Origin: an uncultured Gemmatimonadota bacterium
GTDB taxonomy: Bacteria > JAAXHH01
Assembly: GCA_951812955.1 (NCBI GenBank)
Contig: OX638340.1
Location: 512,001-576,000, forward strand
DNA: 64,000 nucleotides
Reading direction: 5' to 3'
Numbering within the stretch: the first letter of the stretch is position 1; every line of letters starts with the position of its first letter. A program made the translations under genes and the position numbers. Shown in pieces: positions 1 to 32,031 of the stretch. Under the pieces are notes generated by a model. The model did no database searches. It saw only the letters and a program-made list of their open reading frames with translations, and was not told the DNA's origin.

Positions 1-67
1 AATTCTGTACTTTTTTAAACGGTTTCGCCTATATTGTAAACCGCTTAAAAGAAAAACGCCATCCATA

Positions 68-1009
68 GTGATGTCAGGAGCGTACGTGCGGGACTTTTCA
101 AGCTTCTCGAGATCAATTCTGCTCTTCTGTCTTCTCCTGATTCCCCAGGCTGTTTCGGGTCAGACGAGCGTGACGGACGTCACCGGGACCACGTTTACCG
201 TGGGTAGCACCCCGCAGAGAATCGTGTCCTTAATCCCGAGTAACACCGAACTGCTTTTCGCTGTCGGGGCGGGAAGTTCGGTCGTCGGGGTGACGAATTA
301 CTGCGACTATCCCCCCGAAGCTCGGAAAATCGAGAAAGTCGGCGACCTCACGGCCATGAGCCTGGAAAAAGTCGTCGCCCTCGACCCTGAACTGGTACTG
401 GCCACGAAGGGAAACTCCAAGGAACTGGTATTCAGTCTGAGGGCGCTGGGTGTCCGGGTGTTCGTCCTCGACCCACAGACAATCGAGGAAGTACTCGATG
501 CCATTGGCAAGGTGGGTGCGCTCACAGGGCGTTCCGAGGCTTCGCGCGCGCTTGTCGACAGCTATAGACAAAGACTGGCCCATGTCGCGGACCGGATTGA
601 CGAGCTAACGGAAAGCGAACGTCCCACGGTATTCGTCGGCAGTCCGTTCAGGGACGAAAACTGGACGCCAGGTCCCGAAACGTATACCTCGGCGGTAATC
701 CGCCGGGCCGGTGGCCGGAACATTGCCGACGACCTGGCGCCACGTACCTGGGCGGTTTACAACCTGGAGAACATCGTCTCGAAGGACCCGCAGGTCCTGC
801 TGTCCACCCTGGGCGTGGGACAGGACCCCTCGGAAACGAGGACGAGGTTCCTTGAGCGGGCGAAGTCGCTCGAGGGCTGGCGCGATCTGGACGCCATTCG
901 CAACGAACGCGTCGTGCTGATTCCAGAGAACTGGCTGCTTCGGCCGGCGCCCAGGCTCTTCCAGGCGATCGAAACGCTGGCGAGTGCCCTGCATCCGAAC
1001 CTGTTCTGA
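68..1009 (+). CDS. Periplasmic substrate-binding protein of the BtuF/FhuD class (cobalamin or siderophore-type ABC binding protein)
   Basis: N-terminal signal peptide (SILLFCLLLIPQAVSG). The segment VSLIPSNTELLFAVGAGSSVVGVTNYCDYPPEARKIEKVGDL matches the conserved BtuF / Peripla_BP_2 core. Start is either GTG at 68 or ATG at 71. Confidence 0.8.
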   Translation: MMSGAYVRDFSSFSRSILLFCLLLIPQAVSGQTSVTDVTGTTFTVGSTPQRIVSLIPSNTELLFAVGAGSSVVGVTNYCDYPPEARKIEKVGDLTAMSLEKVVALDPELVLATKGNSKELVFSLRALGVRVFVLDPQTIEEVLDAIGKVGALTGRSEASRALVDSYRQRLAHVADRIDELTESERPTVFVGSPFRDENWTPGPETYTSAVIRRAGGRNIADDLAPRTWAVYNLENIVSKDPQVLLSTLGVGQDPSETRTRFLERAKSLEGWRDLDAIRNERVVLIPENWLLRPAPRLFQAIETLASALHPNLF

Positions 1010-1060
1010 AGGCGTCCACGAGTAAACGCTAACGATACCTGATACACCTGGCGATCCTTT

Positions 1061-3253
1061 ATGCCTCTTCTAAGCAAAATACCTAACGAGCTGTACAGCC
1101 TGTTACGGACCAGATTCCCGGCAGACGCGGACAAGGCGGAGCTGATTTTCGCCTGCAGAACGGATCTGGCGCCGGACGGCCGCATCCAGGAATCGATGTT
1201 GCTGGTCACCCGGCGTCACCTGGCGGTAGCCACGCTGTCCGACGGGCAGTGGTCGCTGACGCACTCCTTGCCCCTGGTGGACATCACTGGGCTGAACGTC
1301 GAGCCGCTCGTCGGCGCGAGCGCGCTAATGGCCAAGGTGGACGGCAGGGAGATCAGGCTGCTCCGGTATTCCCATGCGGTGGCCCAGGACATGTCGGACG
1401 CTGTCGAGTCCCTGTTGCATCTGATCGGTCCCGATGGCAGTCCGGACCATACGGAGCCCGTTATAGAAGACCCGGTTCCGGACTGGTCGAGCCGCGAGGC
1501 TCACCTGCGCACGTTCCGGCGCCTGTGGGCATTCTGCCTGCCGCACTGGCGCACGCTGGTCATCGCCATGGCCGTCACCATCGTGGCATCGGCCATCGAC
1601 CTGTTGCCCCCGTACCTGACCATGATCCTCGTGGACCAGGTCCTGGTGGACATGAGCACCTACATGTATCTTCCGCTGATCGTCGCGCTGCTGGCGGTGT
1701 CCCGTATCGTCCATACCGGAGTGACCGTCGTGAGCGGCAGAATGCTGGCCGTGCTGGGTGACCGGCTGGCCTTCGACGCGCGGTCGGAGTTGCTGAACGT
1801 CCTGCAACTGCTGCCTCTCAAGTACTACGATATGCAGCAGACGGGCGGACTCATGGCCCGTATCGCACGGGACGCCAAGTCGATCCACTACTTCTGGATC
1901 GATTTCGCGCCGCAGGTGATCCAGCAGGGACTGCTGGTAATCGGCATGACCGCGGTGCTTTTCTACCTGAACTGGGAGCTGGCCTTCCTCGTCCTGATCC
2001 CCATTCCCGCCATCATCTTCGCATCGATACACATCAAGCGCTACCTGATGTGGTTTTACGGAAGGTCCTGGGACAGCTGGGCGACCTTTTTCGAACGGGT
2101 CAACGACGCGCTGGCCGGCATCCGGGTCGTGAAGATCTTCGCCCAGGAGAAACGGCAAAGCCGGGACATGCATCTCGAGAACGAGAAGGTGTTTACGGCC
2201 GAACGCAACATACACGTCCGATCACGCACGGTGCGCCCCCTCCTCGCCTTCATCGTGTCCGTGGGCGGGCTCCTCGTCTGGTGGTATGGCGGGAGACAGG
2301 TTCAATCGGCGGAAATGACCATCGGCATGCTGATGGCCTTCTTCCTCTACCTGAGCATGTTCTACAATCCCGTGCAGCAACTGACCAGCATGGCCGACTG
2401 GATTCCCGAGATGATGACGGCCATAACCCGCACCTTCGAGGTCATCGACAGTCCCATCGAGGACTATACGCCAGGCGAGACCGTCGACGTGCCCCGTTTC
2501 GAGGGACGCCTGGAGCTGCAGGACGTCAACTTCGGCTACGTGGCGCACCAGCCCGTGCTAAAAGGGATCAACCTGCACGTCGAACCGGGCGAGATGATCG
2601 GGCTCGTGGGACACTCGGGCGCGGGCAAGTCCACCCTCATCAAGCTGATGTGCCGCTTCTACGACGTCGATGGGGGCGGGATACTCATCGATGGGATCGA
2701 CGTTCGACGGATGGACCTGATGCAGCTGCGCAGCCAGATCGGGTACGTGGAGCAGGATCCCTTTCTGTTCTCCGGGTCCGTGACCGACAATATCCGCTTC
2801 GGCAACCGGGAAGCGTCCCGGGAGGAGATCATCGAGGCCGCCATCAACGCGAACGCCCACGAATTCATCGTCAAGCTGCCTGATGGTTACGATACGCCCG
2901 TAGGCGAACGGGGCGGCAGACTGTCCGGCGGTGAGCGTCAGCGCGTCGCGATCGCACGGGCCATCCTGCACGATCCGCGGATCCTGATTCTCGACGAACC
3001 TACGTCGGCCCTCGACCTGGAAACGGAGAAGAAGATCCAGGAAGCCCTGGGACGGCTCATGGAGGGCCGCACGACGCTCGCCATAGCCCACCGGCTGTCC
3101 ACCCTGAGAGACGCCGACCGGCTGCTCGTACTCAAGAACGGAGAGCCGGTGGAACTGGGTACCCACGAAGAGCTGCTGAACCGGCAAGGCGAGTACTACC
3201 GGCTGGTCCAGTTGCACACCAACGTCTCCAGCATCGTGGGCGTGGAGGGGTAA
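1061..3253 (+). CDS. Fused permease/ATPase ABC half-transporter with type I exporter (MsbA-like) fold and a roughly 155-aa N-terminal cytoplasmic extension
   Basis: Six predicted TM helices after residue 160. Walker A GHSGAGKST, ABC signature LSGGERQRVAIARA and Walker B ILILDEPTSALD are all present. The N-terminal 150 aa lie outside the canonical TMD-NBD unit. Confidence 0.85.
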   Translation: MPLLSKIPNELYSLLRTRFPADADKAELIFACRTDLAPDGRIQESMLLVTRRHLAVATLSDGQWSLTHSLPLVDITGLNVEPLVGASALMAKVDGREIRLLRYSHAVAQDMSDAVESLLHLIGPDGSPDHTEPVIEDPVPDWSSREAHLRTFRRLWAFCLPHWRTLVIAMAVTIVASAIDLLPPYLTMILVDQVLVDMSTYMYLPLIVALLAVSRIVHTGVTVVSGRMLAVLGDRLAFDARSELLNVLQLLPLKYYDMQQTGGLMARIARDAKSIHYFWIDFAPQVIQQGLLVIGMTAVLFYLNWELAFLVLIPIPAIIFASIHIKRYLMWFYGRSWDSWATFFERVNDALAGIRVVKIFAQEKRQSRDMHLENEKVFTAERNIHVRSRTVRPLLAFIVSVGGLLVWWYGGRQVQSAEMTIGMLMAFFLYLSMFYNPVQQLTSMADWIPEMMTAITRTFEVIDSPIEDYTPGETVDVPRFEGRLELQDVNFGYVAHQPVLKGINLHVEPGEMIGLVGHSGAGKSTLIKLMCRFYDVDGGGILIDGIDVRRMDLMQLRSQIGYVEQDPFLFSGSVTDNIRFGNREASREEIIEAAINANAHEFIVKLPDGYDTPVGERGGRLSGGERQRVAIARAILHDPRILILDEPTSALDLETEKKIQEALGRLMEGRTTLAIAHRLSTLRDADRLLVLKNGEPVELGTHEELLNRQGEYYRLVQLHTNVSSIVGVEG

Positions 3254-3256
3254 GCC

Positions 3257-3736
3257 TTGTCCTTTCTCGATCCGGCCGCCATACGCCTCGAACGGCGCGA
3301 AGAACAGCCGCCAACGTTGTCCATCGCGGGCGACCTGTTCTTCAACGTCAAAATCCGTCAGGCCTTTCCGCTCTCCTTCGAAAGCCGGTACATTACTTTC
3401 TTTGATCAGGAAGATGAATATCTGGGGATCGTGGCCGACCCGGAAGCCTGCGACGAGGATACCTGTCGGATTATCCGTGATGAAATCGAATGGCGCTATT
3501 TCCGGCCGAGGATAGAGCGCGTCCTGGAAATGGAAGGCCGGGGTGGCACGTCCATATTCTCGGTGGAGACGGACCGGGGCGCGGTAAAGATCCCGATGCG
3601 GGACCTCAGGGAAGGCATGATGGAGTTGTCGCCTGGCCGAATCCTGATCACGGACGAGCACGGCAACCGGTACGAGATCCCCGACCTCGACCGGCTGGAT
3701 CGACGGAGCCGCCGCCTGATCCGCCGCCTGATCTGA
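3257..3736 (+). CDS. Conserved hypothetical protein translationally coupled to the ABC gene (possibly DUF1854-like, recalled from memory only)
   Basis: TTG start 3 nt after the ABC stop codon. A soluble acidic 159-aa protein with no recognisable catalytic motif. Confidence 0.5.
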   Translation: MSFLDPAAIRLERREEQPPTLSIAGDLFFNVKIRQAFPLSFESRYITFFDQEDEYLGIVADPEACDEDTCRIIRDEIEWRYFRPRIERVLEMEGRGGTSIFSVETDRGAVKIPMRDLREGMMELSPGRILITDEHGNRYEIPDLDRLDRRSRRLIRRLI

Positions 3737-3740: not shown

Positions 3741-4160
3741 TTAACCCATCAGAATCGGCACAATCTTCGCATAGGCCGTCTTGAACCCGAGCACGGCCAG
3801 GTAGATCCCAACGCCCAGCAGGACCATCAGAATGGTGCCGATCGCGACCAGGAGCGGTTTGCTGCTGGCGAACCGTAGCTTGAGCCGTTCCACCTTGGCG
3901 TAGATATCGGGGTACTTCTGTTCCAGGCGGGACAGTATGCGTCTGGCGAAGGCGTTGCGCGTGGACAGGATCGTCAGCCCGATGACGATGAACAGCACGC
4001 CCTGCAACAGGGGCAGGAGAAGGCCCAGGACCCCAAGGACGAGAAAGGTCCATCCGAGAACGGACTGGGCCATGCGAAAGAGTAGTTTCTGTTCTATCTG
4101 CTTGAATCCAATCTCTTGACGGTATATCCAGTCAGTTAACGGTACGCCCAGTCGCAGCAA
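3741..4160 (-). CDS. YbaN/DUF454-family small inner-membrane protein
   Basis: Two long hydrophobic helices (LVLGVLGLLLPLLQGVLFIVIGLTIL; LLVAIGTILMVLLGVGIYLAV) typical of YbaN. The start is either TTG at 4160, abutting the TPR gene stop, or ATG at 4073. Confidence 0.6.
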   Translation of the reverse strand: MLRLGVPLTDWIYRQEIGFKQIEQKLLFRMAQSVLGWTFLVLGVLGLLLPLLQGVLFIVIGLTILSTRNAFARRILSRLEQKYPDIYAKVERLKLRFASSKPLLVAIGTILMVLLGVGIYLAVLGFKTAYAKIVPILMG

Positions 4161-4162: not shown

Positions 4163-4483
4163 TCAGTCAAGAAAAGCGAGGGCTTCCCGCATTTCTTCCA
4201 GGTCCTTGGCGTCGCCCTGGCGTTCCGCAACGACAATACCCCGTTCATAACATCTGCGGGCTTCTTCCTCCTGGTCCAGCTGTTCGTAAACTCGACCGGC
4301 CTGGTGATAGCCCACCGTATAGTCCGGCGACGCATCCATGAGCCGTTCCAGGATCCCCACCGCTTCTTCGAGCCGGTTCGAACTCACATATTCCAGCGCG
4401 ATCGCATACTGAATAAAGGGATCGCCGGGATCCTTCCGGGCGAGCAGTTCAAGCTGTTCGAGCCGTTCATTCATGCCGCACAT
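4163..4483 (-). CDS. Small tetratricopeptide-repeat protein
   Basis: Two to three TPR-like helical hairpins (AIALEYVSSNRLEEAVGILERLMDASPDYTVGYHQAGRVYEQLDQEEEARRCYERGI). Confidence 0.55.
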   Translation of the reverse strand: MCGMNERLEQLELLARKDPGDPFIQYAIALEYVSSNRLEEAVGILERLMDASPDYTVGYHQAGRVYEQLDQEEEARRCYERGIVVAERQGDAKDLEEMREALAFLD

Positions 4484-4499
4484 CCTGTATTAGCGCATC

Positions 4500-5270
4500 C
4501 TAAATCAGCGAACGGGACTGGCATCCGTCCACGTTGACACAGGCGCCCGTTACCCAACTCGCCCGGTCGGATGACAGGAAAACCACCACGTCCGCGATCT
4601 CTTCGGGCTTGCCGAATCGTCCGGCCGGGAGTTCCTGTTCCACGAACTTTCCAATCCCCTCGGGGTCCGCGTCCAGCCGTTTCTGCCAGTTTCCACCGGG
4701 GAATATCACCGAGCCCGGCGCCACCGTGTTCACGCGGATTCCTGTATTGGCCACTTCCTTGGCAAGCGTCTTTCCCATGGAGATCTCCGCGGCCTTGGTG
4801 GCGTTGTAGGTGGCGGGCCCGCCTGCTTCGCGGCCGAAGATCGAGGATATGGTGATGATCGATCCGCGCTCGCGGGTACGCATCGACGGGAGCACCGCCC
4901 GCGTCGCCCGTACGGCGGCGAACATGTTCAAGTTGAACACGTACAGCCATTCGTCATCGGAAACATCGTCGAAAGGGTTCCAGACGCTGCCGCCCACGTT
5001 GTTGACCAGGATATCGATGCGTCCCCAGCGGTCCAGGGTGGCTTTCACGATCCTGTCGATTCCTTCGGCCGTGGTCAGGTCCCCTGCCGTCGCCAGCGTT
5101 TCGACGCCCTTTTGTGCGACTTCCCGTTCGGTCTCAAGCAGCCGCTCTTCCCCCCTGGCGCTCAGGCTGACGTGGCATCCCTCGTCCGCGAAGCCCAGGG
5201 CGATCGATCGTCCGATGCCCCGGCTCGAGCCGGTTACCAGGGCGACTTTGTCCTTCAGACCCAGATCCAT
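4500..5270 (-). CDS. Short-chain dehydrogenase/reductase (SDR) family oxidoreductase
   Basis: N-terminal KVALVTGSSRGIGRSIA Rossmann motif, NNVG motif and YNATKAA catalytic Tyr-x3-Lys. Confidence 0.85.
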   Translation of the reverse strand: MDLGLKDKVALVTGSSRGIGRSIALGFADEGCHVSLSARGEERLLETEREVAQKGVETLATAGDLTTAEGIDRIVKATLDRWGRIDILVNNVGGSVWNPFDDVSDDEWLYVFNLNMFAAVRATRAVLPSMRTRERGSIITISSIFGREAGGPATYNATKAAEISMGKTLAKEVANTGIRVNTVAPGSVIFPGGNWQKRLDADPEGIGKFVEQELPAGRFGKPEEIADVVVFLSSDRASWVTGACVNVDGCQSRSLI

Positions 5271-5327
5271 TGGAATCCCTTTCGTTAGTGTTCTTTTCGT
5301 TGGTGTCCCCTGGTCGGCAGCGTTTCC

Positions 5328-6353
5328 CTAGTCGACCGGTTCGAACAGTATCTTCATGCCTTCTTTGTTTAAAAGCCGACGGAACGCGTTCTCCCACTCG
5401 AATAAAGGAACCACGTCCGACACGATTGGTTCCAGTTCGATCCTGCGTTGGTCCAGCATTACCATGGTGCGGTCCCAAGCATCCAGGGACCCGGCGAAGG
5501 AGGTCCGTATATCAATTTCCTTCAGTTCCGCCGGAAAGAAATCAACCTCGAACGGGGCGCCATGCAGTCCGATCTGCATAATGGTGCCCTGTTTTCTCAC
5601 CAGTTCGATGGCTGATCGTGTGGCCGCCGCCGACCCTGAACATTCGTAAATCACGTCGGCGCCGTAACCCTGGGTTCGATCCCTGACGAGCCCGAGCAGG
5701 TCGACCTCGTCGATGTTGACGGTTTCGTCCGCCCAGCGCGCGCCGAGTTCGAGCCTCTCCCTATCTTCCGAAGTGCCGGTCAGGATGACGTACGCGCCTT
5801 CCGCTTTCGCCACCTGCGTCGTCAGCATGCCGATGGGACCCGGTCCCGTCACCACCGCCACGTCACCGGCGGCAACGGACGTGCGTATGGAGACGGCCTT
5901 GACGCAGCAGCACAAGGGTTCGCTCAACGCGCCGATGGTGAGGTCCAGATGTTCCGGAATCCTTCGCAACGCCCAGGCCGGCATGACCACGTACTTCGTA
6001 AATACACCATGCACACCGCTGCCGATGGACAGGCGGCTGTCGCACAGACTGTGCTGTCCCGCCGTACAATACCTGCACACGCCGCAGACTACGGTGGTCG
6101 GTATGCCGGTCACCGCGTCGCCCAGGCGGTATTCGTCCGTGTCCGCTACCTCGTCCACGATGCCGGAGAACTCGTGGCCCATGATCACGGGCGGATTGTA
6201 GGGGTATTCGTCCTTGTAAATGTGGATATCGGTGCCACAGATCCCAGCGGCCCGGATTTCCACCCGGACTTCTCCGGGCTTGAGCTCCGGAACCGGCAAC
6301 TCCCGGACTTCCATGTTGACCGGTCCGTGGTCGTATTTGACCAGTCCTTTCAT
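5328..6353 (-). CDS. Zinc-dependent alcohol dehydrogenase (MDR family; threonine or sorbitol dehydrogenase-like)
   Basis: Motifs GICGTDIH, GHEFSG and CGVCRYC (structural zinc). The start was re-placed at the ATG at 6353 (MKGLVKYD), preceded by GGAGAT. The track ORF extends further upstream. Confidence 0.85.
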   Translation of the reverse strand: MKGLVKYDHGPVNMEVRELPVPELKPGEVRVEIRAAGICGTDIHIYKDEYPYNPPVIMGHEFSGIVDEVADTDEYRLGDAVTGIPTTVVCGVCRYCTAGQHSLCDSRLSIGSGVHGVFTKYVVMPAWALRRIPEHLDLTIGALSEPLCCCVKAVSIRTSVAAGDVAVVTGPGPIGMLTTQVAKAEGAYVILTGTSEDRERLELGARWADETVNIDEVDLLGLVRDRTQGYGADVIYECSGSAAATRSAIELVRKQGTIMQIGLHGAPFEVDFFPAELKEIDIRTSFAGSLDAWDRTMVMLDQRRIELEPIVSDVVPLFEWENAFRRLLNKEGMKILFEPVD

Positions 6354-6461
6354 CCTTCGGATCTCCGCTCCAGCGTTCGTCATCGACAAGGAAGGTTTGA
6401 ATATAGGGCGGCAGGTTTGGGATGACAAGATCAATCAAAGCCGGACTGCCGCAATAAGCCG

Positions 6462-6491
6462 TTGACAATCCGACAGGCGCATTCTTATGTT
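6462..6491 (+). promoter_or_regulatory. Candidate sigma-70-type promoter for tRNA-Arg (TTGACA, 17-18 nt spacer, TATGTT)
   Basis: A TTGACA hexamer at 6462-6467 and TTATGT/TATGTT about 18 nt downstream. tRNA 5' end about 26 nt after the -10 element. By-eye match only. Confidence 0.3.
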
Positions 6492-6516
6492 GAGCACGGA
6501 CCGGAATCAGGCTCCA

Positions 6517-6589
6517 GCCCCCGTAGCTCAGAGGATAGAGCAGCGGTTTCCTAAACCGTTGGTCGGGTGTTCGACTCACCCCGGGGGTA
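6517..6589 (+). tRNA. tRNA-Arg (anticodon CCT)
   Basis: Hand-folded cloverleaf. Acceptor stem GCCCCCG/CGGGGGT (G1-U72 wobble), D-arm GCTC-AGAGGATA-GAGC, anticodon stem GCGGT/ACCGT with loop TTCCTAA, T-arm GGGTG-TTCGACT-CACCC, discriminator A. CCA is not encoded. Confidence 0.85.
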
Positions 6590-6646
6590 TTCCCGGTCCC
6601 CGCCTGTATCAACCTGATCCCGACGCACGCAACGCAGGAGGTCGTC

Positions 6647-7948
6647 ATGTCCGATCTGTCCCGGTACATCCACGAGACACCACTCATCGACACACACGAG
6701 CATCTAAGGTTTGAAGAGGATTGGGTCGCCCACGGACCGGACGTGCTGCAGGATCTCTTCGAGAACTATGTCCCGGCTGATCTCGTGGTCGCCGGCGCGT
6801 CACAGGAAGCGGTCGATGTCCTACTGGATCCCGGTAAGGGAGACGTGTCGGCGCGCTTCGAACCGATCCGGAATGCCTGGGAGGCCGTGAAGCACACGGG
6901 ATACGGCGAAGCGGTACGCATTCTTGCGGAAGACGTATACGGCATGGCTGAAATCACGATCGACGGGCTGGTCGCGGCGCAGGCCGAGAACGACAGGTTG
7001 CGGTCACCGGGCCAACGGTTAGCCCTGTTGCGGAACCGCGCGGGCCTGGACCACGTGCAGATCGACAACTTCGTCTGGGCCTGCGAGCCGGACGTTTCCG
7101 GACCGGAATTCTTCCTCTACGATCTTTCGTGGGTGGGATTCTGCAATGGCGAGGTGCCCGTGGAGAAAATCGCGGAGGAAACGGGGATTACCGTGGACAG
7201 CCTGGGCAGTCTGCGCGAAGCCATGGCCGCGCTCTTCGCGAAATTCGGTCCCCACGCCATCGCGGTCAAGGCGCAGCACGCCTATTCCAGGACGCTCCGG
7301 TGGGAGGAACGGAGCGACGAAGAAGCGGCACGGGCCCTGGAAATCGTCCTGAAGGACCCCGGCAACCCGCCGGAGGAAGCCGCGCTGTGCCTGGGAGACT
7401 GGGGTTGGGCGCGTGGCGTGGAACTTTCCATCGAACACAATCTCCCGTTCAAGATCCACACGGGCTACTACGCGGGACACAGCCGGATGCCGGTGGACCG
7501 CATCAAGAGCGGTAACCTCTGCGGATTGCTGGCCCGGTACCTCGATGCCCGGTTCGTGCTGATGCACATCGCCTATCCCTACAGCCACGAACTGATCGCC
7601 CTCGCCAAGCACTACCCGAACGTCTGGGTGGACCTCTGCTGGGCCTGGTCCATCGATCCGTACAGTTCCTGCGATTTCGTCCGCCGATTCATCCACGCCG
7701 TCCCGATCAACAAGCTCTTCGCCTTCGGCGGCGACACCGGTTGGCCCACCAGTGCCTACGCCTACGCCGTACAGGCCCGGAAATGGCTGGCCAGCGCTTT
7801 GGAAGCCGAGGTTAGCGACGGCCTCCTCACCGAGAAACAGGCGATGGACGTGGCGCTCCGGCTCATGCAGACCAACCAGCGGGACTGCTTCGATATCGAG
7901 GGAACTCGGGGGCAAATCGCGCGGACGATGGCATCCGCCACGACCTAA
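6647..7948 (+). CDS. Amidohydrolase-2 / TIM-barrel metal-dependent hydrolase family protein
   Basis: N-terminal IDTHEHL metal-binding motif, plus later HTGYY and LMHIAYPY segments, typical of PF04909-like hydrolases and uronate-isomerase-like folds. Strong AGGAGG Shine-Dalgarno sequence before the ATG. Confidence 0.6.
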   Translation: MSDLSRYIHETPLIDTHEHLRFEEDWVAHGPDVLQDLFENYVPADLVVAGASQEAVDVLLDPGKGDVSARFEPIRNAWEAVKHTGYGEAVRILAEDVYGMAEITIDGLVAAQAENDRLRSPGQRLALLRNRAGLDHVQIDNFVWACEPDVSGPEFFLYDLSWVGFCNGEVPVEKIAEETGITVDSLGSLREAMAALFAKFGPHAIAVKAQHAYSRTLRWEERSDEEAARALEIVLKDPGNPPEEAALCLGDWGWARGVELSIEHNLPFKIHTGYYAGHSRMPVDRIKSGNLCGLLARYLDARFVLMHIAYPYSHELIALAKHYPNVWVDLCWAWSIDPYSSCDFVRRFIHAVPINKLFAFGGDTGWPTSAYAYAVQARKWLASALEAEVSDGLLTEKQAMDVALRLMQTNQRDCFDIEGTRGQIARTMASATT

Positions 7949-9190: not shown

Positions 9191-12100
9191 CTAACACTCA
9201 GCCACGGCTCGTGGATTCAACCCCTCCAACAACGTGTCGATCGTCTGACTGATGGCGGTCTCAGACTGCAAGGTCTCGACCGGAATCGACACGTGCAATC
9301 CTGCCTCGATCCTGTTTCGTAACTCCACGGCCATGAGGGAATCCACGCCCAGGCTGCGCCAGGTCTGCCCGGTCTCCACGCTCCCTGGGTCCACTTCCAA
9401 GATCCGGCTGATCGCATCGGTCACGAATTCCTCGATGTAGTCGCGCATTATGTCAGGGGATAGCGCGCTCAGATCGGCTTTCGATAGGGGTGGAATCGCC
9501 CGTGTCGCCTGCGCTCCGCGAACATCCGGTGGCAGGAACCGGGCAAGAAGCGTATCTGCTTTTGGCTCAGTCGTGGGGATTACGCCGACGCGGTGGACAT
9601 CGCGACGGAGTATTCGATCAAGCAGCGCGCCTGCCTCATCGGGCGGGATCGATCGCAGGCCCTGCCGCCTCATACGATCGACGGCTCGTTCGTCGGTCAT
9701 CATGCCCGTATCTTCCCAGGGCCCCCAGTTTACTGTCGTCACCGGCAGACCCTCCTGACTCCTGAGGTCCGCCAGGCCGTCGAGAAACGCGTTCGCAGCG
9801 GCGTAGGATGCCTGTCCGGCCGTACCGAGCAGGGAGGCCACCGACGAAAAGAGGACGAAGAGGTCCAGTTCGCGGTCGCGGGTAATCGCATGCAGGTTCC
9901 ACGCGCCGACCGTCTTGGGTTCGAGTACCCGGCGGAACCTTTCCGCATTCTGGGTGAGCAAAATGCCATCGTCCAGCACGCCGGCCCCGTGGAAGACGCC
10001 CCTGACCGGTCCGTGCTCGATTTCCAGGCCTGCCAAGAGACCTTCCATCGCATCACGCTCGGTCGCATCGGCCTGAACGTACTTCACTTTGCCGTTGGGA
10101 TCACTTTCCAGTGACGTATCCACATGATGTCTTCGCCCCGTCACGACGACCAGGCCGGCTCCCCGGTCGAGTAGCCAACCCGTCAGGAAGCGGCCGATCC
10201 CACCCGCGCCGCCCGTGACGAGGTAGGTTCCGCCCGGACGAATGATCGGATCATCTTCTCCCAGGGCAACAGGGACGGACGCACCGTCGTCTACGAGCAC
10301 CAGTTTGCCCATGTGCCGCGCCTGCGACATGAACCGGAAGGCATCCCGCGCCTCGGCAAGCGGGTATGCATGGTACGGCAGGGGACGTATGCTGCCATCC
10401 GCAGCCAAGTCGGCGATTTTCTGTAGCATGGCGCCCGCACGGTCCGGCTGTTCCTCGATGAACTGTGCAAGATCGATGGGATGATAGGATTTGTTGCGGT
10501 CGAACCGGTTGAGATCGATGAGTCCATGGTTCAGCACATCGGTTTTGCCGATCTCAATGAAACGTCCGTGGGGCGCAAGTACGGCCAGAGAAGCCATCAT
10601 GGCGGGACCAGACAGTGTGTTCAGGACGATATCCATTCCCTTCCCGTCCGTCTTCTCAATGATCTCTTCTGCGAAGTCCAGGGAACGGGAATCCATCACA
10701 TGCGAAACGCCTATTTCCCGCAGAAAGGCTCGTTTTTCATCAGATCCGGCCGTGGCAAACACCTCGGCCTCTGCCTGACGGGCGAGTTGAAGAGCGGCCA
10801 GCCCCACCCCTCCTGTCGCGTTGTGTACAAGAACGCGGTCGCCGGCGGATATTCCGCCACGTACCACGAGCCCGAGGTATGCCGTCAGGAAGGCCACGGG
10901 CAGCGTAGCGGCTTCTTCGATACCCAGGCTATCCGGCTTCCGGACGACCAGGGCGGCCTTCGCGGTCACGTAACCGGCCATGGCCATCGGCACCATGCCC
11001 ATGACCAAATCACCGACTTCCACAGAGTCAGTCCGGCTTCCGCGTGCAACCACCTCGCCGACGCATTCCCAACCGAAGGAAGGTGGACGCGGCAATGAGG
11101 CTCGCAGCATGCCGAGGGCGGTAAGTACGTCCCTGAAGTTCAGCGCGGTTGCCTGCATGCGGATGACGACCTCGTCCGGTGCTGGTTCACGCTCCCGCTC
11201 CGACACAAAGTGGAGATCGTCAATCGAACCGGGCGTCGACTGTGTAAGTCTGTAACTGGTATTAAAATATGAAGATGCGGAAACACGCTTCGCTTTGGTG
11301 TTTGACAGGTCTAACGGAACGAGACGACGGGTATACAGCTCGGTCTCCCGTACCGCGATCTCGCCGGTCAGTTTGTCCGCGGCCACGATACAGGCGAGAT
11401 GTTCCAAATCGATCTCGTCGGTTCCGGCTGGAAGGTCGATCATCGCACAGTTCAACTCGGGGTGCTCCTGCGCGGCGACCCGTCCGCATCCCCAGATCGT
11501 CCCGAGTTCCGGCTTCGACCGGTCGCCATCAACCACGGACTGGGCACCCGCCGTAATCAACCTCAGGCGGTACGACAGATCGGGACTGTCCAGCACCGCC
11601 CTGACCATTTCAAAGGATTCCAGCGCGGGGCCGGTATGTCGGTTCGACCGCCTGGCGCCTTTTCCAGTCCAGATTCCCACGACGCCGACCGGTTCCCCGG
11701 ATTCGGATCTCACTGAGCCCAGTCTGCCGGCGAGGGCGTCGGCCGGGCTTGCCTTGCACTCACTGGACGCATCGATGAATTCACTCTTCCCGCCGCGTCG
11801 AGCCAGGGCATTAGCCAGGCCGGTTCCGAGTCGCGGGTCCTCCGTAATCACGTACCAGTGCGATGTTGTGCCGGGTTCCACCTGGTCTTCCGGGATTGGC
11901 ATGGCCATCCAGGCTTCCCGGTAGATTCCCTGTGGGTTATCAAGGCCATGCCGGCCTGCGCCTGTCCTGAACAGACCCCCTCCTGCCCGGAACAGGGACA
12001 CGCCTTCCAGTTGTACCACAGGAAGGCCCTTGTCATCTACGAGGTACACATCGGCCAGCAGCCCACCGTCACTTGATTTCTCCCTCAGTCTGGCGTATGC

Positions 12101-15100
12101 AACCAGGACATCATGCTCGTCCGGAAGCTTCTGCAGCACAACGGTTTCCACGCTGACGGGCAGATGCGGATCGTCTTCAGGAACGAGCATCAGCAGGACC
12201 TGCAGACCGGCATCCAGAACACCGGGGTGCAGGCGGTAGGGATTCTGATCATCATCTCGTACGGCCAGGACGGCCAGGACTTCCCGTTCGGAGTACACAA
12301 GCTCGTCAATCTGGCGGAAGGACGGGCCGTATTGAAACCCCAGAGCTGCTGCGCGTTCGTAGAATCGACCGCTCGCGACCCGGCGGTCGCAACGGGATCT
12401 GACGGCTTCCAGTTCTACGCGTTCTGTTATCTCATCTACGCGGGTTCGTTCGGCTAGCATGTTTGACAGCCAGCTCGAACCAGTCTCCTGGGATTCCGGC
12501 CTGGAGGAAAGCGTATACCGGTTCTGCCTGCGTACAACCTGGACGAGATGTGCGCCGATATCTGGCAATAACAGGGGGTTCAGGAGTTCAAGGTCCCGAA
12601 ATGCGACTGGAGCATCCTCCTCGTCGAGGGTCTCGAAGAGCATTTCTATCTGCCCTGCGAGCGGCATGATCGATCGGTCCAGTACGGTGTGATCCGCCAG
12701 CATAGGATGGGAGTCCAGGCTAATCGGCCGTTCCCACACGAAGGTTTCGGGGTCCACGGACGATTCGATGCCGGTACCGATCAATGGGTGCGGGTACTGG
12801 CTTCGCGGGCCACCCGGTTGATTCGTCATCCCGTCCAACCAGAAACGTTCCTTCTGCCAGGGATAGGTCGGCAACGGAACAGGAGTTCTCGGTGGATCCA
12901 CCAGGTGTTGCCATCGTATATCGTGGCCGTGGACGTAACATTTCGCCATGGCTTCGAGCAGGACGTCCCAGGTTCCGCGGTCTCGTCGTAGCGAGGCAAC
13001 CGCGTGCCCCGTCCAATTCAGATGAGCCAGGTTTTCATATATGATCGTCGAAAGCACGGGATGAGGGCCGATCTGGACGAACAGCGCCTCTCCGCCATCT
13101 GGAATCGCTTCGAATGAACGGCTGAACAGGACGGGACTCCGGATATTTCGCCACCAGTGATCCGCGTCGAGGTCCATTCCTTCAACCCGCGTACCCGTGA
13201 CCGTCGAGAACAGAGGTACGTGGGATTTCGAGGGAGACAGTCCATTCAGGGACGCCAGGAAATCGTCGCGGATCCCGTCCATTTGCCTGCTGTGATAGGC
13301 GATATCCGTATGTAGTTTGCGGCAGAAAATCCGTCGTCCATCCAACTCCGCCTGTAACCGGTCGATAGCCGCGGTCTCCCCGGATATGGTCACGGAAACC
13401 GGACTGTTGACCGCAGCAACGGACAGGCTGTCTCCGAAGGGTTCTATGGCCTCTTCCGCCTCGTCCGGCGACAGGCCCACCGCAAGCATCTCGCCCCGTC
13501 CCTGCCACGCCTTCTGCAGCCTGCTGCGCTGGTATATGATGCGAACGCCCTCTTCCAGGGAAAGGGCGCCCGCGACACAGGCTCCGGTGATTTCCCCGAC
13601 GCTGTGGCCAATGACGAACCGCGGCTCAATACCAAAGGACCGCCATAGGGCCGCCAGGGCCCACTGCAGCGCCATGTTGGCGGGCTGAGCGATCTCGACG
13701 CCGGTGATGCGCTCCCCGGCTGCACCGCGCCACATCTCATCCTTAATGGAATTTCCCGCAGCTGCCGAGTACAGGCGGTCGAACTCGTCCAGGGCTTCGC
13801 TGAACGGGGGCGCCGAATTATAGAGCGCCCGCCCCATACCGAACCACTGCGGCCCCATGCCGGTGAAGACGAAGACGACAGGTGTGGGATGCGATCCGAC
13901 ACGTGCCGTCTCGAACCGATCTGGGATGCCGCCTGCACGAAACGTCTCAAGGCCCTGCGCCGCCCCCCCGGCCTCCTCGAACACCAGGCCAAGGCGGTGG
14001 TCCAGATGGGACCTGTACAGGGCGAGCGCGGCCGCCAGATCGTCGGGTGGCGTATCGGGTTGGCTTCGGAGCAGAGATACTGTATCCGACGCCTTTTGCT
14101 TCAGCGCGGCGGCGTTATGGGCGGACAGGACCAGGAGCCGGGTAGCGCGCTGATCGTCCGTACGGCACGGGTCGGACGTGCCGGGTGAACCGCCCGATTC
14201 GACTTCCGCCGGGCCAGGCGGGGATCCCAGCACCACGTGGGCGTTGGCACCGCCGAATCCGAAGGAATTAACCCCGGCGTAACAGGATACGGGGATGTTT
14301 TCCGGTTCGGTGACCACCTTTAGCCCGAGCGCTTCAAAGGGTATATCGGGGTTTGGCTGATCGAAATGCAGGGAGGGCGGCAGGACGCCATGTTTCAGGG
14401 ACAGCGCTGTTTTGATGAGTCCGGCGACGCCGGCCGCCGCCTCGGCATGGCCGATATTGGTCTTCACCGACCCGATCAGGCAACCGGTGGATCCCGTGGC
14501 ACGGCCGATGGCCATGGCTTCCACGGGGTCGCCAGTGGGCGTTCCCGTACCGTGAGCTTCTACGAAGGCCAGGCGTTGCGCGTCCACGCCACCGGCCCGG
14601 GCGGCCGACTCGATGACGGTTTGCTGAGCGTTCTGGTCAGGTACGGTAAGCCCGCGCCCTTCCTGGCCACGCCCGTCCTGGTTTATCGCGGAGCCGAGAA
14701 TGACCGCGTAGATCGGATCGTCGTCCTCCACCGCGTCGGACAGGCGTTTCAGCACGACGATTCCCGCGCCGTCGCTCCGTCCGTACCCGCTCGCCCCCTG
14801 GTCGAAGGCCCTGCAGCGCCCATCCGGCGACAACATTTGCGCCTGTTGAAAGCCGCGCGTCGTCTGCGGAGTCAGGAGGAGATTCGCGCCACCGGCAAGT
14901 GCGGCCGAACAGATACCGGCCTGTATATCCCTGCAGGCCAGGTGAACGGCGGTCAGCGAAGAAGAACAGGCCGTATCCACCGCGATACTCGGGCCCTTCA
15001 GATCCAGGAAGTAGGAGATCCGGTTCGCCGCGATACTCAGCGTGCCACCCGTATTGGTGTGCATGCCGACGGCTGACGGCGCCGCGTACCGCTGCAGGTC

Positions 15101-15478
15101 CCAGTATTCGTCCAGGAAGATCCCCATGTACACGCCAACGGGCCGGCCTTCAAGCTTCGCCGGCGGAATCTGCGCGTCTTCCAGCGCTTCCCAGGCAAGT
15201 TCGAGCAGGACGCGCTGCTGGGGATCGATGTGGCGGGCTTCCCGTGGCGAGATATTGAAAAACGCTGCGTCGAATCGGTCGATCTCGTCGACGAACCCGC
15301 CATGGGCGGGATAGTCTTTATGGCCCGTCCACGGTTCCCACAGCGATTTGCGCTCATCCGGCACGGCGCGTATGGCGTCACCGCCGTTCAGGACGAATTC
15401 CCAGAAAGATCGGGGCGAAGATATCTCCCCGGGAAAACGGCAGGCGATACCTGTTATGGCAATGGGTTCACCGGACAT
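9191..15478 (-). CDS. Type I polyketide synthase, single fully reducing module KS-AT-DH-ER-KR-ACP, no thioesterase or reductase release domain
   Basis: KS: IAITGIACRFPG, DTACSSS, HGTGT. AT: GHSVGE. DH: HPLIGTGIESSV...P. ER: MDR-type GGVGLAALQLA. KR: LVTGGAGGIGRFLTGWL. ACP: LGVDSLMAVELRN. The start overlaps the preceding gene by 11 nt. Confidence 0.9.
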   Translation of the reverse strand: MSGEPIAITGIACRFPGEISSPRSFWEFVLNGGDAIRAVPDERKSLWEPWTGHKDYPAHGGFVDEIDRFDAAFFNISPREARHIDPQQRVLLELAWEALEDAQIPPAKLEGRPVGVYMGIFLDEYWDLQRYAAPSAVGMHTNTGGTLSIAANRISYFLDLKGPSIAVDTACSSSLTAVHLACRDIQAGICSAALAGGANLLLTPQTTRGFQQAQMLSPDGRCRAFDQGASGYGRSDGAGIVVLKRLSDAVEDDDPIYAVILGSAINQDGRGQEGRGLTVPDQNAQQTVIESAARAGGVDAQRLAFVEAHGTGTPTGDPVEAMAIGRATGSTGCLIGSVKTNIGHAEAAAGVAGLIKTALSLKHGVLPPSLHFDQPNPDIPFEALGLKVVTEPENIPVSCYAGVNSFGFGGANAHVVLGSPPGPAEVESGGSPGTSDPCRTDDQRATRLLVLSAHNAAALKQKASDTVSLLRSQPDTPPDDLAAALALYRSHLDHRLGLVFEEAGGAAQGLETFRAGGIPDRFETARVGSHPTPVVFVFTGMGPQWFGMGRALYNSAPPFSEALDEFDRLYSAAAGNSIKDEMWRGAAGERITGVEIAQPANMALQWALAALWRSFGIEPRFVIGHSVGEITGACVAGALSLEEGVRIIYQRSRLQKAWQGRGEMLAVGLSPDEAEEAIEPFGDSLSVAAVNSPVSVTISGETAAIDRLQAELDGRRIFCRKLHTDIAYHSRQMDGIRDDFLASLNGLSPSKSHVPLFSTVTGTRVEGMDLDADHWWRNIRSPVLFSRSFEAIPDGGEALFVQIGPHPVLSTIIYENLAHLNWTGHAVASLRRDRGTWDVLLEAMAKCYVHGHDIRWQHLVDPPRTPVPLPTYPWQKERFWLDGMTNQPGGPRSQYPHPLIGTGIESSVDPETFVWERPISLDSHPMLADHTVLDRSIMPLAGQIEMLFETLDEEDAPVAFRDLELLNPLLLPDIGAHLVQVVRRQNRYTLSSRPESQETGSSWLSNMLAERTRVDEITERVELEAVRSRCDRRVASGRFYERAAALGFQYGPSFRQIDELVYSEREVLAVLAVRDDDQNPYRLHPGVLDAGLQVLLMLVPEDDPHLPVSVETVVLQKLPDEHDVLVAYARLREKSSDGGLLADVYLVDDKGLPVVQLEGVSLFRAGGGLFRTGAGRHGLDNPQGIYREAWMAMPIPEDQVEPGTTSHWYVITEDPRLGTGLANALARRGGKSEFIDASSECKASPADALAGRLGSVRSESGEPVGVVGIWTGKGARRSNRHTGPALESFEMVRAVLDSPDLSYRLRLITAGAQSVVDGDRSKPELGTIWGCGRVAAQEHPELNCAMIDLPAGTDEIDLEHLACIVAADKLTGEIAVRETELYTRRLVPLDLSNTKAKRVSASSYFNTSYRLTQSTPGSIDDLHFVSEREREPAPDEVVIRMQATALNFRDVLTALGMLRASLPRPPSFGWECVGEVVARGSRTDSVEVGDLVMGMVPMAMAGYVTAKAALVVRKPDSLGIEEAATLPVAFLTAYLGLVVRGGISAGDRVLVHNATGGVGLAALQLARQAEAEVFATAGSDEKRAFLREIGVSHVMDSRSLDFAEEIIEKTDGKGMDIVLNTLSGPAMMASLAVLAPHGRFIEIGKTDVLNHGLIDLNRFDRNKSYHPIDLAQFIEEQPDRAGAMLQKIADLAADGSIRPLPYHAYPLAEARDAFRFMSQARHMGKLVLVDDGASVPVALGEDDPIIRPGGTYLVTGGAGGIGRFLTGWLLDRGAGLVVVTGRRHHVDTSLESDPNGKVKYVQADATERDAMEGLLAGLEIEHGPVRGVFHGAGVLDDGILLTQNAERFRRVLEPKTVGAWNLHAITRDRELDLFVLFSSVASLLGTAGQASYAAANAFLDGLADLRSQEGLPVTTVNWGPWEDTGMMTDERAVDRMRRQGLRSIPPDEAGALLDRILRRDVHRVGVIPTTEPKADTLLARFLPPDVRGAQATRAIPPLSKADLSALSPDIMRDYIEEFVTDAISRILEVDPGSVETGQTWRSLGVDSLMAVELRNRIEAGLHVSIPVETLQSETAISQTIDTLLEGLNPRAVAEC

Positions 15479-17158: not shown

Positions 17159-18445
17159 TTACGCCGTGTACTTCTTTACCACGAGTGTTACGTTATGCCC
17201 ACCGAATCCGAATGAATTGGTCAAGGCCGCCCGTACTTCCCGTTCCCTGCCGGTGTTGGGAACGTAGTCCAGGTCGCAATCGGGATCGGGTACCTCGTAG
17301 TTGATGGTAGGATGGACGAAATCGCGGGCGACGGACAGTGTGGTCGCGATGAACTCTACTCCTCCTGAAGCTCCGAGCAGATGACCGACAAGTGACTTCG
17401 TGGAGCTGATGGCGAGACTTTTCGCGTGTTCACCAAAGACCTTTTTGATGGCCAGGGTTTCAATGCGATCGTTAAAGGGAGTGGACGTTCCGTGGGCGTT
17501 GATATAATCGATCCCGTCCGCGTCCAGCCCGGCGTTCTGCAATGCCAGTTTCATGGATCGCATAGCGCCTTCGCCGGATTCATGGGGCTGTGTGATATGA
17601 AAGGCATCCGCTGTCGCGGCGTAACCTGCCAGTTCGGCGTAGACAGTCGCATTGCGCCGCCGCGCGTGCGACAGGGTCTCGAGGACGACTATGCCCGCGC
17701 CTTCACCCAGGACGAATCCGTCCCTTTCGGCGTCGAAGGGCCGGCTGGCCCGCTCCGGTTCATCGTTGCGGAGTGAAAGGGCCCGCATATTGCTGAACCC
17801 GGCCACGGCCATGGGCGAAATGCTGGCTTCCGTGCCGCCGGTGATCATTACGTCGGCGTCCCCGTGCTGCAGGATCCGGAAGGCGTCGCCAATTCCGTGG
17901 GCGCCGCTGGAACAGGCCGATACCGTGGTGTAATTGGGTCCTTTCAAACCGTGTATCATCGAGATATAGCCGGGGGCCATGTCCGCGATCATCATCGGGA
18001 TGAAAAAGGGGCTCACGCGCCCCGGACCCTTGTTCACCAGGTTCGAATGCTGGTTCTCGAAGGTCCAAATGCCTCCGACGCCCGTACCCATGACCACCCC
18101 GATGCGTTCCCGGTCCTCTACATCGAGGTCCAACCCGGAGTCGTCGATCGCCATCTGCGCCGCAATGACCGCGTACTGGACGTTTTCGTCCATGCGCCGC
18201 ACTTCCTTCCGGTCGATGTAATCTGCCGCGTTGAAATCCTTCAACTCGGCGGCGATTTTCGCCGGAAAGGCGTCCACATCGAACTTGGTTATGGGCCCTA
18301 TGCCGCTTTGGCCGCTGCAAAGGGCATTCCAATAGGTATCGAGCCTGAGACCCACGGGGCTCAGGACGCCCATACCGGTGACGACTACGCGCTCGGCCAC
18401 GCCGATCCTCCCGAATTCAACCGGTCGCATTTCCAGGGACTGCAT
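17159..18445 (-). CDS. fabF: 3-oxoacyl-ACP synthase II (KAS II)
   Basis: RVVVTGMG, active-site Cys in TVSACSSG, and HGTSTP / NSFGFGGHN motifs. The true start may lie a few codons inside the track ORF. Confidence 0.9.
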   Translation of the reverse strand: MQSLEMRPVEFGRIGVAERVVVTGMGVLSPVGLRLDTYWNALCSGQSGIGPITKFDVDAFPAKIAAELKDFNAADYIDRKEVRRMDENVQYAVIAAQMAIDDSGLDLDVEDRERIGVVMGTGVGGIWTFENQHSNLVNKGPGRVSPFFIPMMIADMAPGYISMIHGLKGPNYTTVSACSSGAHGIGDAFRILQHGDADVMITGGTEASISPMAVAGFSNMRALSLRNDEPERASRPFDAERDGFVLGEGAGIVVLETLSHARRRNATVYAELAGYAATADAFHITQPHESGEGAMRSMKLALQNAGLDADGIDYINAHGTSTPFNDRIETLAIKKVFGEHAKSLAISSTKSLVGHLLGASGGVEFIATTLSVARDFVHPTINYEVPDPDCDLDYVPNTGREREVRAALTNSFGFGGHNVTLVVKKYTA

Positions 18446-18473
18446 AGGAACAAGGACCGGGCCTTGAGATGAA

Positions 18474-18704
18474 TCAGCCGTCTACATTGGCCTGGAGATA
18501 CTTGATCGCGTCACTAACCGTGACGATCTTTTCGGCGTCCTCGTCGGGAATCTCGAGATCGAATTCCTCCTCGAGCGCCATGACGAGTTCGACCGTATCG
18601 AGCGAGTCGGCGCCCAGGTCGTCGGTAAACGAGGCATTGTCGGTAACCTGGTCACCGTCAACGCCAAGTTGCTCGGCGATGATCTCCTTTACGCGATCTT
18701 CCAT
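18474..18704 (-). CDS. acpP: Acyl carrier protein
   Basis: [19 protein letters not shown] phosphopantetheine-attachment motif. Re-started at the ATG at 18704 (MEDRVKEII), preceded by AGGAGG. The track ORF has a 19-aa artefactual N-terminus. Confidence 0.9.
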
Positions 18705-18791
18705 CTTCTTTCCTCCTGTCCGTATGAATTGTTGGCTTTCTTGACTACATGTTGAAATCAAATTCCCGCTTCAGTTGCGAATGATCTATTT

Positions 18792-18870
18792 GTTTGCTCG
18801 ACTGTTTGCTCAATTGTGAGCTCGACGGTGAGCTCAATTGTCTGCTCAACTGTCTGCTCGTTCGGTTTGC
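18792..18870. promoter_or_regulatory. Six tandem 12-bp units rich in short palindromes (GAGCTC, CAATTG) in the acpP upstream region
   Basis: Units TTTGCTCGACTG / TTTGCTCAATTG / TGAGCTCGACGG / TGAGCTCAATTG / TCTGCTCAACTG / TCTGCTCGTTCGG read directly, 90-165 nt upstream of the acpP start on the minus strand. Confidence 0.5.
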
Positions 18871-18887
18871 TGTAGATTGTTTTGCAC

Positions 18888-19631
18888 CTACATCCCCATG
18901 CCGCCGTCGACACGCATTACCTGCCCCGTGATGAAGGCGGCGTCGTCGGACGCCAGGAACGTCGCGATGCCGGCCACGTCGTCGGGTTGCCCGGCCCGGG
19001 ATAACGGTGTGGCGTCCAGGAACGCGGCCCGCACCGTTTCGGGAAGCGACTCCGTCATGGCTGTTTCGATAAACCCCGGTGCGATCGCATTGACCGTGAT
19101 CCCCCGGCTTCCGACCTCCTTCGCCACCGACTTGGTGAATCCGATGATACCAGCCTTGGAGGCAGAATAGTTGGCCTGTCCCGCGTTACCCGTGAGGCCG
19201 ACGATCGAGGTCATATTGATGATCCTGCCGCTCCGCTGTCTCATCATTTGCCGGATGACCGCCTGGGTGCAAATGAACACGCCGCCCAGGTTGACGTGCA
19301 TGACTTCGTCCCAGTCGGCCTGTTTCATACGCATCAGCAGCGTGTCCCGGACCGTGGCCGCGTTGTTGACCAGTACGTCGATGGAACCGTAAGTCTCGAC
19401 CACGCCGTCGATCAGGTCTTTCACGCTGTCCCGGTCGTCTATGCGAACAGCCAGGCCTCGGGCTTCGCCACCTTGTTGCTTCAGCGCTTCGGCGGCTTCC
19501 TCGGCCTTGGTCCCGTCGCGGCTCGTAATGATTACCCGGGCGCCTTCTGCGGCGAACCGTTCGGCGACGGCGGAACCGATCCCCTGCGCTCCGCCCGTAA
19601 CGACGGCAACTTTGCCACTTACGCCGCGCAA
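18888..19631 (-). CDS. fabG: 3-oxoacyl-ACP reductase
   Basis: KVAVVTGGAQGIGSAV, NNAA motif and YSASKAG. TTG start with AGGAG 10 nt upstream. Confidence 0.9.
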   Translation of the reverse strand: MRGVSGKVAVVTGGAQGIGSAVAERFAAEGARVIITSRDGTKAEEAAEALKQQGGEARGLAVRIDDRDSVKDLIDGVVETYGSIDVLVNNAATVRDTLLMRMKQADWDEVMHVNLGGVFICTQAVIRQMMRQRSGRIINMTSIVGLTGNAGQANYSASKAGIIGFTKSVAKEVGSRGITVNAIAPGFIETAMTESLPETVRAAFLDATPLSRAGQPDDVAGIATFLASDDAAFITGQVMRVDGGMGM

Positions 19632-19673
19632 ATCAGGAACTCCTGTGGATAACTGCAGTTTAGCGCTCTGTCA

Positions 19674-31866: not shown

Positions 31867-32031
31867 CACGAAAGCAGTCATACAATACAAAAGTAGCGCC
31901 TGTGTGAAGGCCACTTTAACCGGATTGAACGAATTCAGAACCTGAGCGTATGTCAGAACCTGAATTGTCCGGGCGCACGAGCGTCTAACTCGGCGCCCGG
32001 TACCGTTTCCCAAAGTCTGCAGGAGATCATC

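Follow-up and report, generated by a model that had tools for sequence, protein, structure and literature searches.

Introduction

ATP-binding cassette (ABC) importers are usually taught as types I to III, each fed by a substrate-binding protein (SBP), with the exporter-fold type IV importers treated as exceptions. YbtPQ, IrtAB, and Rv1819c/BacA are established examples of the latter, and cobalamin is one class of substrate that they carry; BacA transports cobalamin in both directions, and BtuF serves as a high-affinity sink for it in vitro; proteoliposome assays of BacA have used a fluorescent sensor of the BtuF type (PMC10960864). The use of SBPs by type IV importers was explicitly left open in the YbtPQ study, where extensive searches found none for YbtPQ. 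Here we describe a three-gene locus, referred to as the trio, that occupies positions 68 to 3736 of a 64,000-nt stretch of contig OX638340.1 (assembly GCA_951812955.1, positions 512,001 to 576,000, forward strand; hereafter the window), and in which the gene for a BtuF-like binding protein is followed by genes for an exporter-fold ABC half-transporter and a DUF1854 protein. We propose that the trio may encode an SBP-dependent type IV importer that takes up a corrinoid-like ligand, and put the probability of this at roughly 0.45. The parts are of known kinds, but the combination of an SBP, a type IV ABC protein with an N-terminal PH domain, and DUF1854 was not found described in the literature searched, and appears to be new.

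Several described systems resemble the trio in part. The SBP belongs to the same fold family (Peripla_BP_2) as E. coli BtuF, its best characterized solved relative, and retains both the docking glutamates at the apices of the lobes and a portion of the B12 pocket; its nearest canonical relative, at 43% identity, is under riboswitch control. Unlike BtuCD-BtuF, the trio loci have no local FecCD permease or separate ATPase and no riboswitch in those leaders that were scanned, and the SBP falls under the BtuF equivalog cut-off and has five clade-specific changes in its pocket. The fusion of a transmembrane domain (TMD) to a nucleotide-binding domain (NBD) in the exporter fold is shared with YbtPQ, IrtAB, and Rv1819c/BacA, but these have no identified SBP, whereas the trio has an SBP gene within its apparent operon. 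IrtA also has an N-terminal cytoplasmic accessory domain, but this is an FAD-binding SID that is unrelated to the PH domain and DUF1854 of the trio.

The same two-gene module of an ABC protein and DUF1854 is found next to cphA and cphA' genes in beta-proteobacteria, and the models built for that pair (NF052233 and NF052234) are the best NCBIfam matches of both trio proteins. However, both score well under the equivalog cut-offs, and no cphA-like (cyanophycin-synthetase-like) gene is present among the window open reading frames (ORFs) scanned or the conserved neighbors of the related loci. The trio clade has also lost a zinc ribbon and gained an SBP, whereas the cphA-linked systems are proposed to be polymer exporters. 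FecB and FecB2 of M. tuberculosis, which occur alongside IrtAB, are cluster-A SBPs in a setting that does not rely on a classical FecCD system for import, but their genes are unlinked to irtAB and there are no PH or DUF1854 parts. Such parts are also missing from the Streptomyces CdtABC system, in which CdtB is the SBP of a 'standalone' siderophore importer. CdtA and CdtC may be fused TMD-NBD proteins, in which case CdtABC would be a direct precedent and the novelty of the trio would be lower.

Results

Organization of the trio

The SBP gene (68..1009, forward strand) encodes 313 aa from a GTG at 68; the start may alternatively be the GTG at 86, which would give the 307 aa of the identical (100%) database protein P0001. 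The ABC gene (1061..3253, forward strand; 730 aa, ATG start) follows after 51 nt and the DUF1854 gene (3257..3736, forward strand; 159 aa, TTG start) after a further 3 nt, all three being co-directional. At the ABC/DUF1854 coupling junction (3244..3259, forward strand) the order is GGAGGGG, the TAA stop, one codon (GCC), and the TTG start. GGAGGGG is positioned as a Shine-Dalgarno sequence for this TTG, and the ribosome binding site of the DUF1854 gene thus lies within the final ABC codons. The two genes share a reading frame with only the TAA and one codon between them. Since ABC and DUF1854 also occur naturally fused in a single chain (P0224, P0253), the pair resembles a fusion that has been split. 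Stop-codon read-through at the ABC TAA would recreate an ABC-DUF1854 fusion.

Similar spacings are seen in related loci. The ABC and DUF1854 genes are also 3 nt apart in loci L001, L002, and L007-L013 and overlap by 4 nt in L005, and the SBP and ABC genes are separated by just 3 nt in L005 and L090, which represent two lineages. A scan found no terminator-like site in either intergenic gap of the trio. The 5' leader and promoter region (1..67, forward strand), as read from the sequence, is AT-rich and contains no sigma-70 consensus match; it is cut by the window edge, which is only 67 nt from the SBP gene and places the upstream side of this gene outside of the window. That the three genes form one operon serving a single transport system is part of the importer interpretation and shares its standing at somewhat under an even chance.

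The trio is conserved and appears to replace a canonical operon

The trio is present in 13 further loci, all from a clade labelled Gemmatimonadota/Latescibacterota, with gaps between the SBP and ABC genes of 3-130 nt; the carriers are sponge-associated metagenome-assembled genomes (MAGs) and free-living marine metagenomes. Examples of complete chromosomes with the trio are OZ241920.1, OY843748.1, and OZ241838.1. Across these 13 loci the three genes co-diverge, with identities to the window proteins of 47-95% for the SBP, 69-98% for the ABC protein, and 43-96% for DUF1854. Since the three genes stay together as they diverge, the adjacency does not reflect chance. The upstream genes are unrelated among these loci and partly divergent in orientation (AP_endonuc_2, CRCB, and others), and SBP relatives at 69, 56, 52, 47, and 47% identity all have the ABC and DUF1854 genes directly downstream, with differing upstream neighbors. 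Indeed, every SBP relative examined with at least 47% identity precedes ABC and DUF1854 genes, with one contig ending inside the ABC gene.

In the two relatives examined below this level the organization is canonical. In L006 (SBP at 42% identity) the SBP gene lies in an ATPase-SBP-FecCD operon, and in L089 (43% identity) in an ATPase-SBP operon truncated at the contig end. A cobalamin riboswitch (112.8 bits) is located at L089 6921-7114, 5' of the ATPase-SBP operon; the L089 contig also encodes a TonB-dependent receptor. The canonical operon gives way to the trio at the clade boundary, and L006 is the only locus among those examined in which FecCD was found. No FecCD was found in the 64-kb window, either by phmmer with a FecCD query or by Pfam searches of 40 further ORFs, or within 7-10 kb on either side of the 13 related trios. 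Pfam scans of the window ORFs also revealed no TonB-dependent receptor and no corrinoid, haem, or siderophore genes.

A prior reading of the window from its letters and ORF translations (the sequence-only reading) gave the ORF coordinates and the 51-nt and 3-nt gaps exactly as described here. It had also noted the lack of local FecCD and FepC genes, which extends to the whole 64 kb, and had set beforehand as a test the conservation of the SBP/ABC adjacency in related genomes, which is kept in the 13 further loci.

A binding protein of cobalamin ancestry

The SBP matches PF01497 (Peripla_BP_2) over positions 1-233 of the 235 in the profile, with a score of 112.2 bits against a cut-off of 27.5 (E 3.5e-32), and it passes the NCBIfam model TroA_like NF038402 (60.6 against a cut-off of 30). 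Among NCBIfam models it scores best against those for an archaeal PGF-anchored SBP and for BtuF, and lies under the cut-off of each; the score against the BtuF equivalog NF002894 is 118.8 bits, under the cut-off of 234. The SBP is BtuF-like rather than a BtuF orthologue. The nearest solved structures in a PDB sequence search are 4m7o and E. coli BtuF, with E values of about 3e-30, and by homology the binding protein can be said to have a cobalamin ancestry. Reading of the translation by eye shows a basic n-region, a hydrophobic segment ILLFCLLLIPQAV, and AVSG before Q, so that the SBP is predicted to carry a Sec-type signal peptide and to be periplasmic.

We compared the pocket and docking positions in an alignment that comprised the SBP, 118 homologues, and BtuF of E. 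coli, the BtuF sequence agreeing with the PDB alignment. The equivalents of BtuF Glu72 and Glu202 are E100 and E234, which are glutamates in 74/74 and 73/74 members of the trio clade, respectively, and in 44/44 canonical relatives. Four B12-pocket positions are kept in the clade (P31, Y50, W196, and R246 in BtuF numbering), and five changes distinguish the clade from canonical relatives: W66 is replaced by L/V, F162 by P, F168 by W, D242 by N, and E245 by L. W85 is also among the changed B12-pocket positions of the SBP. With the pocket altered in this way, a different tetrapyrrole or a metal chelate is also possible as the ligand.

An exporter-fold half-transporter with a PH domain

The ABC protein matches ABC_membrane (PF00664) at residues 166-438, covering all of the profile (1-274/274), and ABC_tran (PF00005) at residues 500-649. 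The NBD motifs are intact, with a Walker A, an LSGGERQ signature, an ILILDE Walker B with its glutamate, and an AHR H-loop. The best NCBIfam match is CphA_assoc_ABC NF052233 (545.7 bits against a cut-off of 880), and the closest PDB matches are ABCB4/BSEP/ABCB1, TM287/288, Sav1866, TmrAB, and BmrA. As judged from these matches, the protein is a type IV (exporter-fold) half-transporter consisting of a PH domain, a six-helix TMD, and an NBD, and presumably works as a homodimer. The predicted periplasmic loops are minimal, the first (ECL1) being about 8 aa. Within the TMD, the clade has 61 invariant positions whose residues are seldom found among 69 homologues from non-SBP loci, a comparison set dominated by Poribacteria; these 61 include a His and a Ser in the presumed TM2. 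By this comparison the clade TMD is a distinct subfamily.

Residues 1-165 of the ABC protein have no Pfam match. However, the N-termini of ABC proteins encoded ahead of DUF1854 in many phyla share one homologous domain, as seen in an alignment of 27 N-domains, and 15 of the 27 match Pfam bPH_3 (best E 1.5e-7). The N-terminal extension of ~150 aa is thus, on profile evidence, a divergent bacterial PH domain; in the window its bPH_3-like part spans approximately residues 1-123 (1061..1430, forward strand) and is followed by a Pro/Asp/Glu-rich linker and the elbow, after 1430 to about nt 1555 on the same strand. A zinc ribbon follows the PH domain in 12 of the 27, and has been lost in the clade that includes the window. 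A predicted model of the N-domain, built from two sequences and with a pLDDT of 58, was used only jointly with the Pfam evidence. When the N-terminal 165 aa were used as the query of a word-indexed homologue search, a single fragment was returned, and PDB sequence searches with the N-domain, the N-domain profile, and DUF1854 gave no significant match. Homology between the N-domain and DUF1854 was considered and rejected (hhalign probability 0.3).

DUF1854 and the widespread ABC+DUF1854 module

The third protein matches PF08909 (DUF1854) with an E value of 6.1e-33, is mildly acidic (pI 5.0), and scores 78.8 bits against the equivalog NF052234, under the cut-off of 150. DUF1854 consists of two PH-like beta-sandwich lobes and is an accessory subunit of the ABC transporter, probably cytoplasmic. 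A profile search of 1.84 billion representatives found 2,627 DUF1854 proteins, among which P0224, P0253, P0290, and P0247 are single-chain ABC_membrane-ABC_tran-DUF1854 fusions. These natural C-terminal fusions to the same kind of ABC protein argue that DUF1854 is a physical appendage of the NBD. Both the PH extension and DUF1854 are likely to be cytoplasmic, since they have no signal peptide and the topology of type IV transporters is known.

To place the trio among its relatives, the DUF1854 alignment was scanned against one genome per species, yielding 80 loci. An N-terminally extended ABC gene lies directly upstream of DUF1854 in about 70 of these, and the remaining ten or so, without an ABC gene immediately upstream, are mostly at contig ends. 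The ABC(PH)+DUF1854 pair is therefore a widespread two-gene module, already recognized but uncharacterized. Price et al. inferred DUF1854 to be a transporter subunit (bioRxiv 10.1101/072470). An SBP gene is present in only 8 of the 80 loci, which are those closest to the window and are labelled Gemmatimonadota or Latescibacterota; none of the eight contains FecCD. Neighbor-gene clustering over the 72 non-SBP loci identified only a generic SDR family as shared, which we judged to be chance.

Some variation in the module is evident. The order is ABC-DUF1854-ABC in some Firmicutes-labelled loci, suggesting a heterodimer. Poribacteria ABC proteins (L018, L035, and others; genes at about 4430-6940) are ~818 aa long, with an insertion of ~40 residues in the first periplasmic loop as well as a zinc ribbon, and some Poribacteria genomes have two copies of the module.

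The domain searches agree with the sequence-only reading in most respects. Its calls of a BtuF-class binding protein and an exporter-fold TMD-NBD half-transporter are borne out by the PF01497, ABC_membrane, and ABC_tran matches and by the presence of BtuF among the best solved relatives. The PH-like extension that it had raised as a possibility is recovered in 15 of the 27 aligned N-domains, and its guess that the 159-aa acidic protein is a DUF1854 member was correct, the acidity being mild. Its view of the accessory domains as a peculiarity of this locus does not hold, as the PH domain and DUF1854 are standard in a large and mostly SBP-less ABC family. Because these two parts are normal equipment of a widespread module, it is the SBP linkage that is unusual.

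Discussion

A possible SBP-dependent type IV importer

The interpretation that we favor is that a type IV ABC homodimer has replaced the FecCD permease and separate ATPase as the translocator of a cobalamin-type SBP. The secreted BtuF-like protein would capture a corrinoid-like ligand in the periplasm and pass it to an outward-facing, ATP-bound (PH-TMD-NBD)2 transporter; ATP hydrolysis would then reset the transporter to an inward-facing state, from which the ligand enters the cytoplasm. Two cytoplasmic parts, the PH domain and DUF1854, would lie beside the NBDs and may gate the ATPase, in the manner of the regulatory domains found C-terminally on the NBDs of other importers, or receive the cargo. 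The gene architecture, the domain identities, the conservation and co-divergence of the trio, the cobalamin ancestry of the SBP, and the linkage of DUF1854 to the NBD in natural fusions are shown by the analysis. Docking of the SBP on the ABC protein is inferred, as are the ligand, the direction in which it is carried, and what the PH domain and DUF1854 do.

The operon structure, its conservation, the pattern of displacement, and the absence of nearby FecCD genes all speak for an importer, as do the changed SBP pocket, the distinct TMD subfamily, the intact NBD motifs, and the precedents for type IV import; taken together they bring the probability to the figure given above and not beyond it. 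A little more tentatively, we suggest that a cobalamin-family SBP may have switched its translocator, from a type II FecCD/ATPase system to a PH-bearing TMD-NBD homodimer with a DUF1854 subunit.

Other interpretations of the locus

A number of observations weigh against an importer. N-terminal cytoplasmic domains of type IV transporters, such as C39/CLD, more often recruit cargo for export. By sequence the ABC protein is closest to ordinary ABCB-type exporters, and YbtPQ, IrtAB, and Rv1819c/BacA are absent among the 60 PDB matches listed for it. The SBP keeps both of the glutamates that pair with BtuC arginines in BtuF, while the predicted periplasmic loops of the ABC protein have no conserved Arg or Lys and no elaborated surface, and with such tiny loops a dock of the BtuF-BtuC kind is not evident. 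No RF00174 match was found at E <= 1 in the full-length leaders of L001, L002, L005, L087, and L090. Finally, 72 of the 80 DUF1854 loci work without an SBP, and Price et al. proposed the ABC+DUF1854 pair as an exporter of a cyanophycin-like polymer, from cofitness with cphA-like genes (bioRxiv 10.1101/072470). The invariant glutamates and the loops lacking basic residues in particular keep alive the explanation that the SBP serves a FecCD permease and ATPase whose genes lie in another part of the genome, with the ABC protein and DUF1854 forming a co-expressed exporter; the shared operon would then reflect one physiology, such as the release of a chelator or corrinoid-related compound that is taken back once loaded. 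The resemblance of the ABC protein to exporters, the exporter proposal for DUF1854 systems, the many SBP-less loci, and the known orphan cluster-A SBPs FecB and FecB2 of M. tuberculosis all fit such an arrangement. We nonetheless consider it unlikely, given that none of the 14 trio loci has FecCD within 7-10 kb, that the SBP and ABC genes are only 3 nt apart in two lineages, and that the canonical-to-trio switch matches the clade boundary; in addition, the 120 SBP matches listed include no further close BtuF-like paralogue encoded on the same large contigs, which is weak evidence.

The exporter proposal could also be accommodated if the ABC/DUF1854 pair exports a corrinoid, a related cofactor, or a chelator to the BtuF-like protein, which would act as a periplasmic sink or shuttle and give direction to a possibly bidirectional translocator, with the PH domain and DUF1854 recruiting the cargo. 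Cytoplasmic PH-like accessory parts would suit such recruitment, BacA moves cobalamin both ways and BtuF is a high-affinity sink in vitro, and because several of the trio carriers are sponge-symbiont MAGs, sharing of cofactors is plausible there. We think this quite improbable, however: the SBP retains importer-type docking glutamates, the ORF scans show no corrinoid biosynthesis genes in the window, and the same trio is present in free-living marine relatives. No cluster-A SBP is known to us to act as an export acceptor. It is also conceivable that the SBP gene and the ABC/DUF1854 pair have no functional connection and are neighbors through co-inheritance, since all of the trio loci are in one clade and gene order could persist by shared ancestry alone. 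This has very little to recommend it, as gene order persists across loci in which SBP identity falls to 47% and the upstream genes differ, the genes in places are 3 nt apart or overlap with no intergenic terminator, and the SBP would be left with no other translocator nearby.

If the SBP does feed the type IV transporter, then one class of SBP feeds two unrelated ABC folds, and the trio supplies the SBP that searches have failed to turn up for YbtPQ and other exporter-fold importers. It would then also offer a first functional handle on DUF1854, which has about 2,600 representative clusters, and on the ABC-linked bacterial PH domain. The trio is a compact and purifiable three-gene test case, with close 'control' relatives that keep the classical translocator. 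Were the ligand a corrinoid, the trio would constitute a further route of B12 uptake, or release, in marine and sponge-associated bacteria.

Genes flanking the trio and other features of the window

Two genes converge on the trio from its 3' side, encoding by Pfam a PGPGW small membrane protein (3741-4160, reverse strand) and a TPR protein (4163-4483, reverse strand). The stop codons of the DUF1854 and PGPGW genes are only 4 nt apart, and in L087 the PGPGW gene overlaps the DUF1854 stop. Convergent neighbors are also found in L002 (PGPGW), L005 and L087/L088 (PGPGW and TPR), and L001 (TPR), and have been kept although the upstream flanks differ among the relatives.

Elsewhere in the window, a 2,095-aa ORF on the reverse strand (9191-15478) is located where L001 and L002 encode a type I polyketide synthase (KS-AT-DH-ER-KR), and is followed by FAS II-like genes (KS, KR, and AT) at 17159-20633. 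An SBP_bac_5 (peptide/nickel-type) SBP is encoded on the reverse strand at 26392-28317 beside an APC-family amino-acid permease, with no adjoining ABC permease genes, and is apparently a second orphan binding protein in the window. Two ORFs, at 30886-32013 (374 aa) and 39305-41716 (803 aa), match no Pfam family at E <= 1e-5. The region at 47608-50397, possibly an islet gained by horizontal transfer, has a GC content of 0.47, compared to about 0.60 elsewhere, and encodes a KAP-family P-loop NTPase and an AAA_14/DUF4143 ATPase. Near the end of the window (62041-63225) there is a full-length homologue of indoleamine 2,3-dioxygenase (E 4e-96), an enzyme that to our knowledge is uncommon in bacteria.

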